NCBI GenBank assembly: GCA_024975835.1
Contig: GCA_024975835.1_4840.3
Origin: a phage
DNA length: 18,253 nt
Direction: 5' to 3' (one strand)
The position numbers and the translations under genes were made by a program. Below are positions 7,846 to 18,253 of this stretch, in pieces (the first letter of the stretch is position 1; each line of letters starts with the position of its first letter). Below the pieces are notes generated by a model, which searched no databases, had not been told where the DNA came from, and saw only the letters and a program-made list of their open reading frames with translations.

Positions 7846-8685
7846 ATGTCATATATTCTTCATGTGGATTCTGGAACCAAAATTGAAATTGAAGGCAAAG
7901 ACGTTGCTGCTATTCAGGCTGAAATCAAAGAAGCAGGTCTGATCATCGGAAACGTTACCCTGCGCCGTATGGTTGAAGGTGTTCTTCAGGCTGCCAACGG
8001 CTTCGAACTGATTGAAGGTCTGAGCGCCGAAGAGAAGGAAGAAACTCAGCAGGCTCTGGCGCAAGCCCAAGAGCAAGCCCAAGCTGAAGTATCCCTGAAA
8101 GTCGCTGAAACCGTTGATGCTGAAGCACCGATCTCTGCCGATGCATGTGAAGCCCCAGTGTCCGACGCCCCGGTAGACGCGGTTAAAGATGCAGTCAACG
8201 CGGCGCTGGAAGAAGGCAATCAGCCGTCCGACGCGAAAATCGGTTCCTTAGCGTCTTCTATGCTGAAAGAAGCATCGAAGGGTAAGACCCTGACCCCGCA
8301 GGCAGCGCTGGTAGAGCGTAAACGCCGTCACACCAAACGTGAGGAAATGGTTGACTTGGCTCGCGCTTCTAATCACGGTCCGGTCTTGGCGGCGATTGAA
8401 GCTGGTGTTGTCCCCGGCGTGTTCCTGAGCTACGTGAACCCAGACATGCGTTGGTTCCAGTTCCCGGTCACCGAACTGGCTAACCCTGAAAACCTTCACG
8501 CCCGCACCAATACGTATGTCGACGTTGCGCCTATCGTTTCCGGTGGCTGGGGCTTCAGTCTGTACGTGAACGGCAAGTCCTTCACCAAACGTCAGAAGAT
8601 CAAAGAGTCTGATGCTGAGTCTCTGGTTAAGGCGATCAATGAATGGCTTCCACAGGCTCTGGCTGAAGCGAAAGCTGCTGCGTAA
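7846..8685 (+). CDS. Hypothetical early protein (279 aa): N-terminal domain, acidic Ala/Glu/Gln-rich low-complexity linker, C-terminal domain
   Basis: ORF bracketed by the promoter at 7749-7777 and the terminator at 8716-8746; appears GC-richer with host-like codon choice by eye; no recognised family. Confidence 0.65.
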   Translation: MSYILHVDSGTKIEIEGKDVAAIQAEIKEAGLIIGNVTLRRMVEGVLQAANGFELIEGLSAEEKEETQQALAQAQEQAQAEVSLKVAETVDAEAPISADACEAPVSDAPVDAVKDAVNAALEEGNQPSDAKIGSLASSMLKEASKGKTLTPQAALVERKRRHTKREEMVDLARASNHGPVLAAIEAGVVPGVFLSYVNPDMRWFQFPVTELANPENLHARTNTYVDVAPIVSGGWGFSLYVNGKSFTKRQKIKESDAESLVKAINEWLPQALAEAKAAA

Positions 8686-8715
8686 TTTAAGTTCAGAAAC
8701 TGTTCAAAAGATGAA

Positions 8716-8746
8716 GGGGCTGCTATAATAGCAGCTCCTTTTGTTT
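8716..8746 (+). terminator. Rho-independent terminator: stem GGGGCTGCTA / TAGCAGCTCC (one G-U pair), loop TAA, then TTTTGTTT; a TATAAT hexamer (8724-8729) is embedded in the hairpin
   Basis: Read directly; lies between the stop of gene 7846..8685 and ATG 8760. Confidence 0.6.
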
Positions 8747-8759
8747 ATTGGAGCAGTTT

Positions 8760-9419
8760 ATGTCCTACTCCCTGAAGGGGTTGATGAAGCGCCCCGTCCA
8801 CACATTCTTTAAACCACCCGTCGTAAAGGGGATCTACCCAGCACGAGGGCAAATCTACTACGTCAAAGGCTCCAATGGTAGCGGTAAATCCACTGTGCCG
8901 TCTCAGCTGGCGGAGAGGGATCCTCAGGCGTATGTCGTGACCCATAATGGCAAGGTCATGCTGACTGTCTGTCCTTCGTTCAACGTGGTCTGTATCGGTA
9001 AATATGACAAGTCGAAGTCCAAGGGGGTTGATTCCCTGAAGGACACTGAGCAGATGTTGTTCGCGTTGTCTATTGCTGACCAACCAGAATACTTGAAATA
9101 TGATGTGATTTTCGAAGGTATCATTCCATCCACATTATTGAGTTCTTGGATCCCCCGTCTGACACGCCCACCACGTGAATTGGTTGTGCTCTTTATGGAC
9201 ACTCCTCTTGAAACGTGTATCACCCGCGTTAAATCACGTAACGGCGGTGTGGACTTCAATGAAAGTCTGGTGGTCGAAAAGTGGGAAAGAGTTCATGACC
9301 ATCGTCAACGACATAAAGACTTGTTCCCTACGGTAGCTGCGGGTATGATGAAGTCTCACGGCCTAACGGTAGACCAGGCTGTGATGGCATTCCTCTGTCG
9401 TGATTTTGGGAGTATCTGA
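8760..9419 (+). CDS. P-loop kinase-like protein (Walker A GSNGSGKST), 219 aa; candidate nucleotide or DNA kinase
   Basis: Walker A motif in the first 50 residues; start moved from the track's TTG 8748 to ATG 8760 (GGAG 7 nt upstream); stop overlaps the next start as TGATG. Confidence 0.6.
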   Translation: MSYSLKGLMKRPVHTFFKPPVVKGIYPARGQIYYVKGSNGSGKSTVPSQLAERDPQAYVVTHNGKVMLTVCPSFNVVCIGKYDKSKSKGVDSLKDTEQMLFALSIADQPEYLKYDVIFEGIIPSTLLSSWIPRLTRPPRELVVLFMDTPLETCITRVKSRNGGVDFNESLVVEKWERVHDHRQRHKDLFPTVAAGMMKSHGLTVDQAVMAFLCRDFGSI

Positions 9420-10465
9420 TGGAAATCAAAGCAATTAACAACAATGACATGCTGAAGCAGGCTGTCTTGGCTATCCGTGAATTCGGGATCGAATCTGATC
9501 CTGGTAATGCTGAAATCAATACTGATAGCACCCGCTTCCTTGATGGTGTGACTATCACTGTTTCCGATATTCGTGACCGCTGGCTCTCCGTTGAAGGTCG
9601 CAACTCATCGGCTATCGCTGCCATCGGCGAGACCTTCTGGGTGTTGTCAGGCCGCAACGACATAAAGTTCCTGTCACGCGTATTGCCTCGCGCTGCTAAC
9701 TTTTCGGATGATGGGGTAACATGGCGAGCTGCTTATGGTCCGCGTCTGTACGCCCATGGCCAGCTGGATAGCGTTATCAACCGCCTGCGCAAGAACCCAA
9801 ACACTCGTCAGGCGTACCTCACCATCTATGACCCGGCTCTAGATTCGGATGCTGGTCTGGCGAAGTTCAGCGAGAGCGGCGAAGCAAAGACTAAGGACAT
9901 GGTGTGTAACCTGGCTCTGTTGTTCGCCATCGTTGAAGGTCGTCTGAACCTGACGGTCATCAATCGCTCACAGGATGTTCTGTGGGGGATGAGTTCAATC
10001 AACTTCATTGAGTTCTCTATTCTTCAGGAAGTGATTGCTCGGGTGTTAGATGTTGATGTCGGTCAGTACAAGCTATTCTCTAACAATCTTCATTACTACA
10101 ACAATGAAGTCAGCCAGAAGCAGCTGGGCAAGATCACGAAGGACACCAAAGTAGAAGCTGGGTTCATCAACTCCATGATTCACTTCACGAACGTGACCAA
10201 CCAGAACCATATCCGCAATCTGTTCACTGGTGTGCTTCATCACTGTGATATCGGTAGCCCGTGGGAAACTGTGGTTGCTCACCTGAAGGAATACGATGCG
10301 GATCGCGGCCTGATTGTACAGATGGCGTACTGCCTGCACTGCAAATTGAATAACAAGCTCATTAACCTGGACCTGATTCAGGATCATGGCTTGAACACCG
10401 CGCTTACCCATTCTCCGGTTGACCGCAAGATCGTTGATCCTAAGTTCCTGGAAGGTGTAGTATGA
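9419..10465 (+). CDS. Thymidylate-synthase-superfamily enzyme, probable deoxypyrimidine-monophosphate hydroxymethylase (T4 gp42-like), 348 aa with a long C-terminal extension
   Basis: TS-fold motifs in the right order: GETFWVLSGRNDIKFL (TS ELLWFLKG...), GQLDSVINRLRKNPNTRQAYLTIYDP (TS DQL..VI..LK.DP.SRR.I.SAWNP), nucleophile Cys in DMVCNLALLF, and LTVINRSQDVLWG (TS YQRSaDvfLG; T4 gp42 MRSNDVVFG). Confidence 0.75.
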   Translation: MEIKAINNNDMLKQAVLAIREFGIESDPGNAEINTDSTRFLDGVTITVSDIRDRWLSVEGRNSSAIAAIGETFWVLSGRNDIKFLSRVLPRAANFSDDGVTWRAAYGPRLYAHGQLDSVINRLRKNPNTRQAYLTIYDPALDSDAGLAKFSESGEAKTKDMVCNLALLFAIVEGRLNLTVINRSQDVLWGMSSINFIEFSILQEVIARVLDVDVGQYKLFSNNLHYYNNEVSQKQLGKITKDTKVEAGFINSMIHFTNVTNQNHIRNLFTGVLHHCDIGSPWETVVAHLKEYDADRGLIVQMAYCLHCKLNNKLINLDLIQDHGLNTALTHSPVDRKIVDPKFLEGVV

Positions 10466-11031
10466 TGTACCCAAATCTTGAATTCTTTACGGGGCGCAAA
10501 CGCTCCGGTAAGGACTTCTGTTTGGAGTCCCTCATCAGCTATCACCAACTACAGGGTGATATGGACATCCAGCGCCTTTCGTTCTCAGATGAACTGCGCC
10601 GTGTGGCCAACTACATCTACCCATGGCTGCCAGCGGAGGTAGAGGATGCCGTGAAGGACGTTCCTTACGTGCACCCTGATAACCCCAAGGGCTTAACTCC
10701 ACGGCAGATCTGGCTTCATCTAGGCAGCGATACGGGCTTGCGTTACGTACAACCCGATCTGTTCCTGGCATTCTTCAAGCGCTTCCAGCTTCCTCTGGTA
10801 GAGCAGAACCCCCACGTCCATTATATCGTGAGCGATCTGCGTACCCCTCAGGAATATGAATGGGCGCTGAGTACGAAATGTCCTATCACCCGTATTTCAA
10901 AGGCCGACCGTGCTGGTATCATAGAGGACGATATAGAGGCTTTCATTGACCAAATGAAAGTGGACTACGAATTCCTCAATCCATTTGATGGTTGGGAACC
11001 GTTCGTTAAATTCTACGGAGAACGTAAATGA
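10462..11031 (+). CDS. Deoxynucleoside-monophosphate kinase, T4 gp1-like (189 aa)
   Basis: FFTGRKRSGKDFCLESL matches T4 gp1 FLSGVKRSGKDTTADFI (the G-x-x-RSGKD loop); YIVSDLRTPQEYEWA matches gp1 YIVPDTRQDHEMDAA; start overlaps the upstream stop as ATGA. Confidence 0.65.
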   Translation: MMYPNLEFFTGRKRSGKDFCLESLISYHQLQGDMDIQRLSFSDELRRVANYIYPWLPAEVEDAVKDVPYVHPDNPKGLTPRQIWLHLGSDTGLRYVQPDLFLAFFKRFQLPLVEQNPHVHYIVSDLRTPQEYEWALSTKCPITRISKADRAGIIEDDIEAFIDQMKVDYEFLNPFDGWEPFVKFYGERK

Positions 11032-11582
11032 TCACAGCAGGGCATATCAAAAGCCTGCTCGAACTCCAAAAGGCCACCAACGTGGCCTACTTTGGGGAAG
11101 AGTGGAAGAATGTATGGAGTCAGAACGCAGTCATCAACTCCATCTATCGTGAGTGGGCAGAGTTCCTTGATGAAACCACCCGTGACTGGAAGGTCTATGG
11201 CAACGACATCGGGTTTGACCATACGAACGCAGTTTATGAACTGGTGGACGTGGTACACTTCATGTTGTGCTTCATCCTTGTGGACCGCACCAAAGGTGAG
11301 ATCGAAGAAGAATTTGAAGTCCTCAGTAATCGCGAATTCACCCCATCTACTTTGGGTGTTGTAGGGCATCGCAATGTTACGTACCGCCTTGGGCAATTCA
11401 TGAACGATCCTTGCGTTGAGACTCTCATGTTCTTCCTGTCGTCTGCGTGTTCTTATATGGAGATCGACATTGAGACTTACATGCTGGCGCACAAACGCAA
11501 GAACGATCGCAATCGTCTGCGTGCTTCTGGTGGCGCGGATTACGACAAGTCCGCAGAAACCCCTCTGACCCTGGAGTTCTAA
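11028..11582 (+). CDS. All-alpha dNTP pyrophosphatase, T4 gp56 (dCTPase/dUTPase)-like, MazG/dUTPase_2 superfamily (184 aa)
   Basis: AVYELVDVVHFMLCFILVD matches T4 gp56 KFELVDIFHFVLNMFVGLG; start overlaps the upstream stop as ATGA. Confidence 0.55.
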   Translation: MITAGHIKSLLELQKATNVAYFGEEWKNVWSQNAVINSIYREWAEFLDETTRDWKVYGNDIGFDHTNAVYELVDVVHFMLCFILVDRTKGEIEEEFEVLSNREFTPSTLGVVGHRNVTYRLGQFMNDPCVETLMFFLSSACSYMEIDIETYMLAHKRKNDRNRLRASGGADYDKSAETPLTLEF

Positions 11583-12124
11583 TGTTTACAGTCGTCGTTT
11601 CATACCATGCGGAGAACGCTGCTCAGGCATCCTCCAAATTCGCCGAGCACATCATCGGCGGCGGCCATAATGTATTCCTTACTGAATACAACAGGCCTGT
11701 TAAACCGGGCGACGGTCTTTCGGCGACTGTTACGCATAAGATCGCCAGCGAGCAACCAGAGTCTCTGTTCAGAATGATCGAAGAGTATGCCAGTGGTGGT
11801 ATCAAGATACCAGATGAACTGGTAGACGTCTATTTTGAAGGCTCGATCTATTACATCCACGCTATGCCAAAGGATATAACCATTGAACAGATGATGTATA
11901 TCCTGAATATAGCACTGAACACTGCGTGCATCAACCGCACGAACTACAACAATCTGCGCAATATGTACCTAACCGACCGGCATAATGACGCATCGTCACT
12001 TGTTGAGATAATGTCCCTGAAGAGCATCCAAGAGGCGGTTAACATTTTGTCCCAGAAGGTTATGGGTGTAGACTTACTAACGACGATTAACAACAAAGAG
12101 GAAGTGAAATGGCCAGTTCATTAA
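11582..12124 (+). CDS. Hypothetical protein (180 aa) in the position that beta-glucosyltransferase occupies in T4, between the gene-42-like gene and uvsX
   Basis: ORF coupled to its neighbours (TAATG at the start, 16-nt overlap with uvsX); no motif recognised; too short for a GT-B glycosyltransferase. Confidence 0.55.
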   Translation: MFTVVVSYHAENAAQASSKFAEHIIGGGHNVFLTEYNRPVKPGDGLSATVTHKIASEQPESLFRMIEEYASGGIKIPDELVDVYFEGSIYYIHAMPKDITIEQMMYILNIALNTACINRTNYNNLRNMYLTDRHNDASSLVEIMSLKSIQEAVNILSQKVMGVDLLTTINNKEEVKWPVH

Positions 12125-13194
12125 TGGACCGCATGCTGAAGGTTGCTAAGAAACACGATGACCAGGCTTCAGTGCTGTCCCAATCAGACGCTCTGGAACC
12201 GTCTATCATCTGTTCTACTGGTATTCCCCTGATCGACATCGCATGGTCTGGGCGTATTGACGGCGGCCTGATCTCCGGTATCAAGATGATGGTGGGTGAT
12301 TCCCGTACCTTCAAAACGATGTTCGGTCTGGTGGACGTCAAGGCGTACATGGACAAGTTCCCTGATGCTATCTGCGTCTTTGCGGACTCAGAAAAGGGTG
12401 CCAACGCTGATTACTGGACCTCTATGGGCATTGACATGGACCGCGTCCTGTACGTACCGATCGACAACGTTGAACAGACCAAGATCCGATTGCTACAGAT
12501 CCTACAGGAAGTCAAGAAAGGCGACCATGTTATAATCTTCATCGACTCTATCAGCCAACTTCCCTCCACCAAGGAAGTTGAAGATGCGATCAAAGGGAAC
12601 GACACTCAAGACATGACCCGCGCCCGTGCCCTCAACAGCTTCTGGCGTGTCATGACTCCCGAAATCAACAGCAAAAATCTCGTGTGTGTTTGGATCAACT
12701 CCTATTACGATGAGATCGGCAACCAATATGCCGAGCCTAACATCAAAGGCGGCAAACAGGGCTTCTTATCCTCCAACTTGATCTGGTTTATCACCCGTTC
12801 TCAGGTGAAGGAAGACAAAGATCTGCTGGGCTGGAACTTCAACATAAGCATCATGAAAGGCCGCCATGTCAAAGAAAAAGCCAAGCTCCCTGTCACGGTA
12901 CTGTACAACGGTGGTATTGATCGCTGGAGCGGCCTGCTTGAGATCGCTCGTGCTCTGGGTTATGTTGATATGCCGTCTTCCGGCTGGTATGTGCGTACAG
13001 CCAAGGGCGGTTTCGATCCTGAGAAGGAAAAGAAATATCAGAAGCGTCAGATGGGTGATGATTTCTGGTATCCGCTGCTGGAGAATGTCAACTTCGCCGA
13101 TGACGTGAAGAAAATGTTCGGTGTTTCTAACGGTACTGTTATGCCTGCTAACATGCTGGAGCAAATGGACCATGTTATTAACACAAGCGAATAA
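12109..13194 (+). CDS. uvsX: UvsX RecA-like recombinase (361 aa)
   Basis: Collinear with T4 UvsX: MVGDSRTFKTMFGLV vs LAGPSKSFKSNFGL, ICVFADSE vs VCLFYDSE, VIIFIDSI vs VVVFIDSL, DMTRARAL vs DMTRAKTM, YNGGIDRWSGLLEIA vs FDGGIDPYSGLLDMA. Confidence 0.9.
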   Translation: MASSLMDRMLKVAKKHDDQASVLSQSDALEPSIICSTGIPLIDIAWSGRIDGGLISGIKMMVGDSRTFKTMFGLVDVKAYMDKFPDAICVFADSEKGANADYWTSMGIDMDRVLYVPIDNVEQTKIRLLQILQEVKKGDHVIIFIDSISQLPSTKEVEDAIKGNDTQDMTRARALNSFWRVMTPEINSKNLVCVWINSYYDEIGNQYAEPNIKGGKQGFLSSNLIWFITRSQVKEDKDLLGWNFNISIMKGRHVKEKAKLPVTVLYNGGIDRWSGLLEIARALGYVDMPSSGWYVRTAKGGFDPEKEKKYQKRQMGDDFWYPLLENVNFADDVKKMFGVSNGTVMPANMLEQMDHVINTSE

Positions 13195-13501
13195 TAGTGG
13201 AGGGGGAGGAGACTCCCCCAATAACTACACAATCATCGACCCTGGTGCTGATCAGCTGGCGATCATCAAGATCACTTCTGGCAAATTCCGTGGTGTTCAA
13301 TTCCGGTTCGGCAAGGTGGCTATTAACGAAGTGGACGGCGAACCCCGCCTGTCTTTCGTGACTGATATATTGAAGAAACCATTGCGTCTGATGTTTGTGA
13401 ATTTGAAAGAAAATGACTTGTTCACTGAGGTATCAGGGGATATCCTTGTAGACCTCATGCAGCGTAATGCTCAGGAATATAATAAATTTTTGGTGGGGTA
13501 G
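13172..13501 (+). CDS. Hypothetical protein (about 109 aa) in the T4 gene 40 position between uvsX and gene 41; start uncertain
   Basis: ORF in track begins at GTG 13121 inside uvsX; the first in-frame ATG is 13172 (GGAG 11 nt upstream); assignment to gene 40 is positional only. Confidence 0.4.
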   Translation: MLLTQANNSGGGGDSPNNYTIIDPGADQLAIIKITSGKFRGVQFRFGKVAINEVDGEPRLSFVTDILKKPLRLMFVNLKENDLFTEVSGDILVDLMQRNAQEYNKFLVG

Positions 13502-13507
13502 TGGCCA

Positions 13508-14932
13508 ATGTTACTCGAATCTGTCGTGCTTTCACAGTTGATTTACAATGAAGATTACCAAAGAAAGATCCTGCCGTACCTGAAAGCCGATTATTTTGAC
13601 AACGAAGGCGAAAAGGTCATCTTTGGCCTGATTGACAGTTATACCTCAGAGTACAATGCCCGCCCGTCTGTCGAAGCACTATCTATCATTCTTGAACGGA
13701 CAAAGTTGAACGAATATGTGTTTGACCAGGCAGTGACTGCCCTGGAGAACATCAACGACAACACCTTCAATGAAGAGTGGCTGGCGAAGGAAACCGAGGC
13801 TTGGGCGCGGCAAAAAGCCGTACACAACGCAATCAAGACCGCCGTCAACATCTACGGTGACGAGAAGCGCAAGGACGAGATGAACAACATCCCGACCATG
13901 TTGCAGGAAGCCCTGGCTATCCGGTTTGATTCATACCTCGGTCACATCTATTGGGAGATGGCGGCAGAGCAGTATGACCACATGAACTCCAACGAGGCCA
14001 AGATCCCGTTCGCAGTTGAGATCTTCAATAAGGCGACACGTGGTGGCGTTGGTAAGAAGACACTGAACATCGTAACAGGTGCGATCAACGCAGGTAAGAC
14101 CACAACGCTGATTGACCTGACCGCAGGGTACTCGGAGCAGGGGCTGAACGTCTTTGTCTTCACCCTTGAAGTGGCCGAGAACGTCTGGCGACACCGTCTT
14201 GATGCCCGTATCATGCGTCGCGACTTTGAGTCTTTAGAGAAACTCACAAGGCACGAGTATATTGCAACGATAGAGAAGCTCCGCAGTCGCCAAGATGGTG
14301 CGCCCAAGGGTGATATCGTCATCAAGGAATATCCTTCTGGTACTGGACACACGGGTTTATTCCGCCGCGATATCCTTGAGTACATCCAGGCAACAGGTCG
14401 TGCTCCTGATGTTATCGTTATTGACTATCTTGGCGAAGCTGCTTCCTCGCGCCTGCCTTCCCACCTGATGCAGAACACGAACGTCTATTACACGTCTGTG
14501 GCTCGTGAGTTTCGTGCGCTGGGATTTGAGTTTGATGTCCCTGTATGGACTGGTATGCAGTTCAATCGTGAGAATCAGAATAGCACTGATGGTGGAATCA
14601 GTGATTTGGCAGATGCTATCGGTATTCCGAAGGTGGCCGACTTCATCATGGCATTCTATGCTCCTGACGAACTGGCGGCGGTCAAGAAAGCCCGAGCCTC
14701 AATACTCAAGAACCGTTATGCCAACAAGCAGAAGCTGAAATCATTCCTGTTTGGTATGGACCAAGACAAACAGATCCTGTTTGACCTGGACTGGAATGAA
14801 GTTAAGAAGGACCTGACCGAGGCTGAGGCCAAATATGTCGAAAACGTACACATCAAACATGACCTCAACAAGTCCGGGGCTGCTGCCAGCGATGAGCAGA
14901 AAGCCCAAACGGTCAATAATTGGAAATTCTAG
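13508..14932 (+). CDS. 41: Replicative DNA helicase, T4 gp41 (DnaB-like) family (474 aa)
   Basis: Walker A GAINAGKTTTL (T4 GVNVGKSLGL); SQLIYNEDYQRKILPYLKADYF vs T4 SHLIFDQAYFSKVWPYMDSEYF; IVIDYLG vs IIIVDYLG; IPKVADFIMA vs LPATADFMLA; both end in KF. Confidence 0.9.
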   Translation: MLLESVVLSQLIYNEDYQRKILPYLKADYFDNEGEKVIFGLIDSYTSEYNARPSVEALSIILERTKLNEYVFDQAVTALENINDNTFNEEWLAKETEAWARQKAVHNAIKTAVNIYGDEKRKDEMNNIPTMLQEALAIRFDSYLGHIYWEMAAEQYDHMNSNEAKIPFAVEIFNKATRGGVGKKTLNIVTGAINAGKTTTLIDLTAGYSEQGLNVFVFTLEVAENVWRHRLDARIMRRDFESLEKLTRHEYIATIEKLRSRQDGAPKGDIVIKEYPSGTGHTGLFRRDILEYIQATGRAPDVIVIDYLGEAASSRLPSHLMQNTNVYYTSVAREFRALGFEFDVPVWTGMQFNRENQNSTDGGISDLADAIGIPKVADFIMAFYAPDELAAVKKARASILKNRYANKQKLKSFLFGMDQDKQILFDLDWNEVKKDLTEAEAKYVENVHIKHDLNKSGAAASDEQKAQTVNNWKF

Positions 14933-14958
14933 GCAATTCAATAAAGCGGGTCATAGGG

Positions 14959-14964
14959 TATAAT
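14959..14964 (+). promoter_or_regulatory. Candidate -10 element GGGTATAATT, 32 nt upstream of ATG 14997; no convincing -35
   Basis: TATAAT read directly; same spacing to the start codon as the elements at 8724 and 17597. Confidence 0.3.
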
Positions 14965-14996
14965 TCTATGATCTGAATGTAAACCAGGAGCACATC

Positions 14997-17508: not shown

Positions 17509-17589
17509 CATGCGCAAGTATTTCAACTGGTTGTTCTGTATACCGTCGCTGAGTGCTGAGATTCGTTCCCTGATAATATATTGAAGTCT

Positions 17590-17622
17590 CCAGGGTTATA
17601 ATAGCAGCACATATAACCCTGG
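17590..17622 (+). promoter_or_regulatory. Hairpin with 11-bp perfect stem CCAGGGTTATA / TATAACCCTGG and 11-nt loop; contains TATAAT (17597-17602) and its 3' arm overlaps the ligase ribosome-binding site
   Basis: Read directly; no T-tract follows, so it is not a terminator; shares the 12-mer TATAATAGCAGC with the element at 8724-8735. Confidence 0.4.
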
Positions 17623-17631
17623 AGGCACCAC

Positions 17632-18253
17632 ATGATCCCTATCCTTGAAATAGTCCACCGACTTCGCGAAACCAAAGGCAGCAATGCGAAGAAAGCCGTG
17701 CTGACCGAAGCATTCAAGAACAACCCAGACTTGGCAGACTTCCTGCAGTATGTCTATGACCCAATGACGTCGTTCTATCGGACTGAGTTGAAGCTCAGCG
17801 CGTATCCTCGCATGCTCGTCCGTGAGAAGACTGATGACATCAGCGAAGTCTATGACGTCCTCGACCAGATGGCGCAGCGTCTTGTCGGTGGCCAAAAGGC
17901 TGATGCCCTGTTGGCCTCTGTCGCCCTGAAGATGGATCCCCAATACCACGAACTCATTCAGATGATCCTAGACCGTGATATCAAGGCGGGTATCGCTGAG
18001 AAGGGCATCAACGCTGCATTCAACGCCGCCGGAGGCACTGGACGCCTGATCAACATTCTTCCGTATCATCGTTATGACAACATGACGATTGACCTGCTGA
18101 AGAAGATGGACTTCAAGCGCGGCGTCTACAGCCAGCTGAAGTCAGACGGTATGTTCGCCAACATCATATGTCGGTACAATAAAGAGCCTGAGATTCGCTC
18201 TCGCTCCGGTTCCCTTATCGCAGGTGGTTCGGTTGATAACCTTTCACTGGTGT
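17632..18253 (+). CDS. 30: ATP-dependent DNA ligase, T4 gp30-like; 5' partial, continues beyond the window
   Basis: Hand translation has no stop to the window edge; contains the adenylation motif QLKSDG (T4 ligase QLKADG with active-site Lys); GGAGG 6 nt upstream of the ATG. Confidence 0.8.
   Translation, partial: MIPILEIVHRLRETKGSNAKKAVLTEAFKNNPDLADFLQYVYDPMTSFYRTELKLSAYPRMLVREKTDDISEVYDVLDQMAQRLVGGQKADALLASVALKMDPQYHELIQMILDRDIKAGIAEKGINAAFNAAGGTGRLINILPYHRYDNMTIDLLKKMDFKRGVYSQLKSDGMFANIICRYNKEPEIRSRSGSLIAGGSVDNLSLV

Follow-up and report, generated by a model that had tools for sequence, protein, structure and literature searches.

Genes of the window and the repeated 12-mer

The 18,253-nucleotide stretch of phage DNA analyzed here (the window; GenBank assembly GCA_024975835.1, contig GCA_024975835.1_4840.3) is assigned, from its sequence, to the replication and nucleotide-metabolism region of an Agtrevirus-like (Ackermannviridae, ViI-like) phage. 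The full 18.3-kb window shows 98% identity to Enterobacter phage fGh-Ecl02 and to several Escherichia and Salmonella phages, and 92.7% identity to Shigella phage Ag3 (Agtrevirus, Ackermannviridae). Its T4-like genes include those for gp33, the gene 32 SSB, a 5-hydroxymethyldeoxyuridine (5-hmdU) DNA kinase, a thymidylate-synthase-like protein, UvsX, gp41, and a ligase, and a few late baseplate genes are interspersed among these replication, recombination, and nucleotide genes. Non-coding DNA makes up 5.5% of the window and 7.7% of the fGh-Ecl02 genome (ON212266). The kinase gene (8760-9419, + strand; Pfam HMUDK_HMUD1, E = 1.6e-108) is the first of the operon 8760-14932, and the 5' part of the DNA ligase gene (17632-18253, + strand) runs off the window. 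Upstream of each of these two genes lies a copy of the 12-mer TATAATAGCAGC; this 12-mer and the TATAAT hexamer that forms its first half, a candidate promoter -10 element, are the subject of this analysis.

A first-pass annotation had described the 12-mer as a motif shared by two hairpins, 29-30 nt upstream of two start codons. Its positions were confirmed: the 12-mer occurs exactly and just twice on the + strand, at 8724-8735 (copy 1) and 17597-17608 (copy 2); folding places both copies inside stable hairpins (8713-8741 and 17586-17626); and TATAAT ends 30 nt before ATG 8760 and 29 nt before ATG 17632. The status of the whole 12-mer as a motif had to be given up, as the identity of the pair is not above chance and TATAAT alone is the motif. 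The window contains 23 pairs of identical 12-mers on the same strand, where dinucleotide shuffles give 12.8±4.9, and this background, together with the lineage-specific AGCAGC of copy 2, rules out the 12-mer as a motif or repeat.

The AGCAGC half occupies different structural settings at the two loci. At copy 1 (8730-8735, + strand), it pairs with GCTGCT 8719-8724 and is invariant because it is part of the 3' arm of a terminator, while at copy 2 (17603-17608, + strand), it is loop sequence, conserved in Agtrevirus and Limestonevirus only; the bases after the copy 2 TATAAT read AGCAGC, AGCATG, AACAAG, TGGATT, or ATAACG across relatives. No base 3' of TATAAT is conserved in the promoter family described below. 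AGCAGC thus belongs to a stem at copy 1 but to an unconstrained loop at copy 2, and its presence at both is coincidental. For two sites to agree in all six bases 3' of TATAAT, the probability is ~0.0025 among the five intergenic TATAAT sites of the window and 0.03-0.06 among the 16-23 found in intergenic DNA genome-wide. Of the 12 bases, six are functional (the TATAAT -10) and six coincidental (AGCAGC).

Were the 12-mer part of a mobile or duplicated repeat, or of an RNase III-type processing site common to both loci, this would account for the exact 12-nt identity, for the low within-window probability of the further shared 6-mer, and for the long copy 2 stem without a U-tract. We give this explanation almost no weight, because homology ends at the 12-mer, the hairpin arms are unrelated, AGCAGC moves from stem to loop and is lineage-specific at copy 2, and the coincidence is far less striking when reckoned genome-wide. 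A helix of 13-15 bp is shorter than typical RNase III substrates, and an RNase III site at copy 2 was rejected because the helix is too short.

The TTCAAT-N14-TATAAT family

A genome-wide motif search with start-codon spacing statistics, as the first-pass annotation had proposed, found TATAAT to be commoner than expected (11 occurrences in the window versus 5.3±2.3) and uncovered a preferred spacing to a second element. Genome-wide statistics were obtained from the complete fGh-Ecl02 genome (ON212266.1). Four of the seven + strand TATAAT hexamers of the window lie in its small non-coding fraction (P = 2.8e-4), as do 23 of the 63 in the fGh-Ecl02 genome, and ~16 of these 23 are situated 25-76 nt 5' of a same-strand start codon. 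Alignment of the intergenic TATAAT sites revealed an upstream box, TTCAAT, usually followed by AA. When TTCAAT and TATAAT were each allowed at most one mismatch, the intergenic matches in ON212266 peaked at a spacer of N14 (18 matches), with 6 at N13 and 0-4 elsewhere. The N14 excess extends to coding DNA (14 versus ~5 at neighboring spacers), and a scan requiring at least 10 of 12 matching positions returned 85 matches, 38 of them in non-coding DNA.

Membership of the family was defined by a -10 element matching TATAAT with at most one mismatch, with A at position 2 and T at position 6, and the box was scored with a position weight matrix (PWM; background -5.8±4.9, consensus tttTTCAATAA). The 29 strict members lie 9-79 nt before start codons (median ~36 nt; 17/29 at 28-43 nt), with G enriched at -16 to -13 and C-rich sequence at -5 to -1. 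They precede non-structural genes, including nrdA, clamp loader, rIIA, tRNA, and endonuclease genes, the 5-hmdU kinase operon, and many small open reading frames (ORFs); late structural genes bear another motif, CTAAATAcCcc. The spacer peak, the intergenic enrichment, the conservation, and the fact that the motif is already named in the literature bear out the earlier suggestion of a phage-specific promoter class. This class appears to be specific to the Ackermannviridae and to serve pre-replicative genes for replication, recombination, nucleotide metabolism, and DNA modification.

The motif TTCAAT[N14]TATAAT has been named as a unique regulatory motif of ViI-like phages and is quoted for the Agtrevirus-like phage EspM4VN (PMC7283392). 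The family found here agrees with the published motif in its consensus, its N14 peak, and its placement before non-structural genes, and departs from it in that the copy 2 box of the window matches at just 3/6 positions. The motif was reportedly first listed by Adriaenssens et al. in 2012 (Arch Virol 157:2035), in the proposal of the genus Viunalikevirus. The accessible literature on the motif, the 2012 genus paper excepted, gives the string only, with no mapped starts, no recognition factor, and no mention of a hairpin or terminator apex, and the 2024 family review is silent on promoters and transcription.

In copy 1, the box lies at 8703-8708 (+ strand), 15 bp from the -10 element, and reads TTCAAA in the window but TTCAAT in 17/17 relatives. 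It matches TTCAAT at 5/6 positions, its PWM score of 6.2 is at about the 99th percentile of the background, and TTCAATAGA at this box is invariant across genera. The TTCAAT-to-TTCAAA substitution at position 8708 is unique among the 18 sequences and is predicted to weaken the box. The -10 hexamer (8724-8729, + strand) is preceded by TGC, so that 8721-8729 forms an extended -10 element, TGnTATAAT (TGCTATAAT), whose T and G are invariant in the relatives; the hexamer itself is invariant except for TATTAT in one Limestonevirus. In the Ag3 RefSeq record, the homologous site carries the label 'minus_10_signal, putative; extended region'. From these elements, copy 1 is rated a strong candidate member of the promoter family.

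Copy 2 is rated a weaker candidate member, with a degenerate box. At the box position (17576-17581, + strand), 15 bp from the -10 element, the window reads ATATAT (3/6), while the relatives read ATCTAT in Agtrevirus (PWM 2.8) and TTCTAT in Kuttervirus-like contigs (6.8). The ATCTAT-to-ATATAT change at position 17578 relative to these phages is predicted to weaken the box. The -10 hexamer (17597-17602, + strand) is preceded by no TGn, the site reading GGTTATAAT, and it is invariant in 16 sequences while the neighboring loop varies.

Three predicted sister promoters and a possible fourth lie on the + strand of the window. Before gene 32 (SSB, ATG 3807), TTCAAT 3708-3713 is separated by N12 from TATAAT 3726-3731 (site 3708-3738; box PWM 10.1), in agreement with the first-pass annotation, which had placed a TATAAT in a hairpin upstream of this gene. 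Before ATG 6611 (site 6548-6585), TTCTAT 6548-6553 is followed after N14 by GATAAT 6568-6573 (PWM 11.9), and before ATG 14997 (site 14937-14975), TTCAAT 14937-14942 is followed after N16 by TATAAT 14959-14964 (PWM 12.9). A perfect 12/12 TTCAAT-N14-TATAAT lies inside the RuvC-like gene (2536-2561, + strand; PWM 8.4), 114 nt before the next start codon (2676), and may be an internal promoter. The extra TATAAT sites named earlier fared unevenly: the one at 14959, before ATG 14997, has a box and lies in a hairpin, while the one at 1025 on the minus strand, before ATG 994, lacks a box (PWM -5.3), and the site at 13478 before gene 41 has a box score of -6.9, at background level. By these scores, 13478 and 1025 (minus strand) are probably outside the promoter family. 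The remark that none of the hexamers has a convincing -35 is correct insofar as no canonical sigma-70 -35 was found at either copy, where it was looked for, and needs amending insofar as a TTCAAT(AA) box is present 14±1 bp from the -10 element.

Unmodified host sigma-70 RNA polymerase might transcribe from these sites without a phage factor, treating them as extended -10 or -10-only early promoters, with TTCAAT serving as an accessory UP-like or bend element. The perfect TGnTATAAT of copy 1 and the G enrichment at -16 to -13 fit such a mechanism, as do the many early promoters that are needed when only ~8 canonical sigma-70 promoters have been found in relatives (PMC3184105; PMC3121705), and no MotA/AsiA homologue is known (PMC3184105). 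However, many members have imperfect -10 elements without TG (TATTAT, TAAAAT, TATCAT) that would be weak by themselves, and the box is as conserved as the -10 element at a fixed distance of 14±1, which is typical of a specific protein contact and too short for sigma region 4. The canonical -35/-10 promoter at 7749-7777 in the same genome also suggests two promoter classes. On balance, we regard recognition by sigma-70 polymerase alone as unlikely, though it deserves more weight than the other alternatives considered here.

Some further features of these genomes were noted. On the minus strand at 1180-1207, a perfect TTGACA-N16-TATAAT (12/12) lies within the + strand ORF 1044-1568 and is directed towards the baseplate gene gp26 (ATG 994); Ag3 and fGh-Ecl02 share it, and an estimated ~0.007 such sites are expected by chance in such a window. 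The ON212266.1 record is filed as Cvivirinae; Kuttervirus, despite its 98% match to a window that is 92.7% identical to Ag3; Kuttervirus-like contigs share only ~77-89% protein identity. The taxonomy of the fGh-Ecl02 record therefore looks wrong, because the genome is near-identical to the Agtrevirus-like window and the Kuttervirus-like contigs are far less similar. The Ag3 RefSeq label 'terminase small subunit' for the kinase homologue (L001 9304-9966) is probably a misannotation.

Hairpins centered on the -10 element

The copy 1 hairpin (8713-8741, + strand) consists of a 5' arm (8713-8725), a loop TAA (8726-8728), and a 3' arm (8729-8741). The 13-bp stem, GAAGGGGCTGCTA-TAA-TAGCAGCTCCTTT followed by TGTTT, runs into the U-tract TTTTGTTT (T-run 8739-8746), folds with -26.9 kcal/mol (z -3.3), and is the top-scoring intrinsic-terminator-like site in the window. 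Judged by this architecture, the hairpin and T-run can be assigned as the intrinsic terminator of the upstream gene 7846-8685. As in intrinsic terminators generally, a G/C-rich 13-bp stem with a 3-nt loop precedes a U-tract, 28 nt past the upstream stop codon; unlike in these, the loop and arms double as a promoter core, with the -10 element in the loop and the discriminator and predicted start site in the 3' arm. The idea of a combined terminator/promoter module therefore holds for copy 1, where the -10 element lies in the terminator loop, but not for copy 2, which has no U-tract and whose hairpin covers a Shine-Dalgarno sequence instead.

The kinase Shine-Dalgarno sequence GGAG (8750-8753) and ATG 8760 (together 8750-8762, + strand) lie outside the copy 1 hairpin, and Shine-Dalgarno sequestration of the T4 type is thus absent there. 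The whole 60-nt module of box, 5' arm, TGn, -10 element, 3' arm, T-run, and Shine-Dalgarno sequence is invariant or pair-preserving in the 17 relatives (Agtrevirus-, Limestonevirus-, Kuttervirus-, and Taipeivirus-like contigs), while the adjacent coding DNA diverges (kinase protein identity 76-99%). In the 15 distinct sequences of the helix, 100% of cells are paired and only GU/GC/AU swaps occur. A pairing of GCTCC in the 3' arm with GGAGC of the Shine-Dalgarno region was considered and rejected: the minimum-free-energy fold of the promoter-started RNA does not use it, and sequence L024 speaks against an apparent compensatory change seen in Taipeivirus-like contigs. Farther upstream on the + strand, a terminator-like hairpin (7702-7723) is followed by a TTTACA-N17-TATTAT promoter (7749-7777) before gene 7846, which looks like a separate host-type (early?) transcription unit, putatively ending at the copy 1 terminator.

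The copy 2 hairpin (17586-17626, + strand) has a 5' arm at 17586-17600, an 11-nt loop at 17601-17611, and a 3' arm at 17612-17626; its 15-bp stem folds with -24.6 kcal/mol (z -3.9), and the first four bases of the -10 element lie in the 5' arm and the last two in the loop. There is no U-tract 3' of the hairpin, which is followed by GCACCACATG, and the 3' arm pairs the ligase Shine-Dalgarno sequence GGAGG (17621-17625). Across relatives, 98% of helix cells are paired, columns 42/70 pairing as GU, AU, or GC. Different phages carry different genes 5' of this site, yet the module from AATAAT.TATTGAAGTC via TATAAT to the ATG is conserved; its TATAAT, arms, and GGAG do not vary, in contrast to the loop.

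On the + strand of the window, each of the five promoter-like -10 boxes (3726, 6568, 8724, 14959, and 17597) lies at a hairpin apex, and these hairpins are more stable than shuffled sequences, with z-scores from -2.2 to -4.5. At the three sister sites, the hairpins span 3721-3738 (z -3.6), 6555-6585 (z -2.2, with GATAAT in the loop), and 14947-14975 (z -4.5). In the fGh-Ecl02 genome, 11/29 strict promoters have a hairpin of at least 7 bp with the dyad center inside the -10 element, where 2.15 are expected at random intergenic positions; none of 1000 resamples reached 11, and other intergenic TANNNT hexamers are so placed in 9.6% of cases (Fisher P = 1e-4). The remaining 18/29 have no such hairpin. 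About half of the apex hairpins have a U-tract, as in copy 1. Kuttervirus-, Taipeivirus-, and Limestonevirus-like contigs keep the architecture but have other arms, orthologous sites reading, for example, AGGGGGA-tataat-TCCCCCT versus CAACAGGGGGA-tataat-TCCCCTTGTTG, and at the gene 32 site too, the box and -10 element are conserved while the arms differ between genera. Nesting of the -10 box, in a terminator or in a hairpin that hides a Shine-Dalgarno sequence, is systematic.

Such regularity raises the question of whether the hairpins alone are functional, as terminators or RNA-stabilizing 3' hairpins, with TATAAT being an A/T-rich, partly palindromic loop devoid of promoter activity. GCTGCTATAATAGCAGC is a perfect palindrome, the TATTAT of one relative is palindromic too, A/T-rich loops are common, and the literature search turned up no mapped start sites. 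Loops can normally vary freely, however, and at copy 2 TATAAT stays constant as the remaining loop bases change; the box outside the hairpin is conserved at a fixed spacing; some members have no hairpin, and the gene 32 site keeps its box and -10 element after the hairpin has decayed; and TATAAT is enriched in non-coding DNA. A purely structural role is, in our estimation, quite improbable.

The coincidence of the dyad center with the -10 element in the 11/29 promoters could also reflect a cruciform, extruded from the DNA by supercoiling, that presents a single-stranded -10 element as in the early hairpin promoters of phage N4. Sigma-70 recognizes the -10 element as single-stranded non-template DNA, which would suit this mechanism. 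An N4 hairpin promoter has a uniform 5-7 bp stem, a 3-nt loop, conserved bases, and a phage RNA polymerase; here, the stems range from 7 to 16 bp and the loops from 3 to 11 nt, the arms are unrelated with no common sequence, and the copy 2 -10 element is partly in the stem. Moreover, many of the hairpins have U-tracts typical of RNA terminators, and the 18/29 members that have no such hairpin count against it as well. Both helices tolerate G·U, whose counterparts would be A·C mismatches in the hairpin of the other strand; sense-strand RNA is therefore favored over DNA cruciforms, which we judge very improbable.

Proposed separation of read-through and promoter-started RNA

The evidence is best accommodated by reading both TATAAT hexamers as -10 elements of TTCAAT(AA)-N14±1-TATAAT promoters nested in hairpins that separate read-through from promoter-started RNA, and we consider this arrangement probable. 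Host sigma-70 RNA polymerase would read the -10 element, together with TGn at copy 1, and the box near -30 would probably be read by a phage factor or by a remodeled sigma region 4; it is not a sigma-70 -35 element because it is too close to the -10. Transcription is predicted to start ~7 nt after the -10 element, near 8736 and 17609, past the 5' arms. An RNA started there could therefore not form the hairpin and would neither terminate itself nor hide its ribosome site. In the folding calculations, the promoter-started leaders reach -5.0 (copy 1) and -1.3 kcal/mol (copy 2), compared with -26.9 and -24.6 kcal/mol for the read-through RNAs. The conserved hairpins thus probably make read-through RNA behave differently from promoter-started RNA. 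Copy 1 would act as a compact 'stop and restart' site, at which an upstream sigma-70-type unit is terminated and the kinase-to-gp41 operon is restarted from a phage-specific promoter. At copy 2, the read-through RNA would be translationally silent, because the 3' arm holds the ligase Shine-Dalgarno sequence, and the promoter-started RNA would be active.

Both halves of this arrangement have counterparts in T4. In T4 middle promoters, a MotA box centered near -30 is located 12±1 bp from a sigma-70 -10 element before replication and nucleotide-metabolism genes (PMC2988021). The promoters described here likewise combine a sigma-70-type -10 element, often with TGn, with a phage-specific element near -30; the geometry is the same, as TTCAATAA ends 12 bp from the -10 element; and the gene classes served (replication, recombination, nucleotide metabolism, and tRNA) are shared (PMC2988021). 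The sequences differ, TTCAATAA standing against TGCTTtA, and the consensus tttTTCAATAA does not conform to the MotA box (a/t)(a/t)(a/t)TGCTTtA, so the likeness is a functional analogy only. In the T4 genes e, soc, 49, and I-TevI, a promoter lies inside a hairpin that sequesters the ribosome-binding site (PMC3014915). Copy 2 has the same layout, with the Shine-Dalgarno sequence in the 3' arm, the promoter in the 5' arm and loop, and the predicted start near 17609 past the 5' arm (17586-17600), and it is predicted to follow the same logic, in which only the promoter-started RNA lacks the inhibitory arm. In contrast, the internal T4 promoters are late promoters (gp55, TATAAATA), whereas those found here belong to the TATAAT/-30-box class.

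Several observations made alongside concern late-type motifs and leader hairpins. On the + strand, GTAAATAGCCC (2044-2054), a late-type motif, has its reverse complement GGGCTATTTAC farther downstream (2078-2088), directly before ATG 2089 of the RuvC-like resolvase gene; a read-through RNA of 2044-2088 would hide the start region and a promoter-started RNA would not, which parallels T4 gene 49 (endonuclease VII). The pairing of CTAAATAcCcc with its own reverse complement at a start codon recurs at several sites in a related genome. In distant gene 32 relatives (L063 and L064, 53-61% identity), the apex of the hairpin upstream of gene 32 carries TATAAATA, the T4 late-promoter consensus, and not TATAAT. 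The 75-nt leader of gene 32 contains a hairpin, GCCC-tgag-GGGC, just 5' of the Shine-Dalgarno sequence (3770-3800, + strand), which is kept in Kuttervirus- and Taipeivirus-like contigs (L047-L062) with other loops (GCCC-gaag-GGGC, GCCCC-ctg-GGGC); by analogy with T4 gene 32, it may be an autoregulatory operator.

A number of results weigh against the nested-promoter reading. Spacer length at the window sites varies from N12 to N16, exceeding the ±1 of a MotA-like element, and the copy 2 box of the window scores at background level (PWM -3.0) with no TGn beside it. The hairpin of the gene 32 promoter is degenerate or lost in Kuttervirus-like contigs while the promoter elements remain, which means that the hairpin is not obligatory. 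On both helices, covariation cannot be distinguished from shuffles, with pairing at 98-100%; the sequences vary too little for it to be informative. MotA, AsiA, Alt, and ModA are reportedly absent from ViI-like phages, and the CBA120 study, which found no informative early promoters, left early and middle promoters unidentified (PMC3184105). A scan of 9-10 candidate proteins yielded no MotA/AsiA-like or sigma-like signal; no lead came from the window's 104-aa 'transcriptional regulator' (PHROG 639), an FmdB-type zinc ribbon, an HU-like protein, the 111-aa protein after the 14959 promoter, or a 672-aa 'putative RNA polymerase'. A literature search for transcription start-site, term-seq, in vitro transcription, or transcriptome data returned nothing for any Ackermannviridae/Kuttervirus; promoter activity, start sites, and timing are therefore inferred here. 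The 672-aa protein (L003 22906-24924; fGh-Ecl02 72906-74924), whose record notes similarity to a 'putative DNA-directed RNA polymerase', has no Pfam match and matches only PHROG families of unknown function; a TTCAAT-type promoter is situated 68 nt upstream of its gene in fGh-Ecl02.

The promoter motif was known already; what is added here, as a useful elaboration with T4 precedents, is the systematic nesting of its -10 element in hairpins. Annotators should label these sites as promoters (and terminators) and disregard the 12-mer as a motif. The control of early and middle transcription is an acknowledged gap for the Ackermannviridae, a large family with hypermodified DNA that is used in biocontrol. 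Where intergenic regions are short, the nested arrangement would explain how one transcription unit is ended and the next is started. We tentatively raise the further possibility, itself doubtful, that the TTCAAT(AA) box is read by a phage activator or sigma-remodeling system unlike MotA/AsiA, which would be a second, independently evolved appropriation of sigma, and that the apex hairpins provide genome-wide insulation. If this were true, each pre-replicative cassette would be expressed only with that factor present, whatever reads through from upstream.

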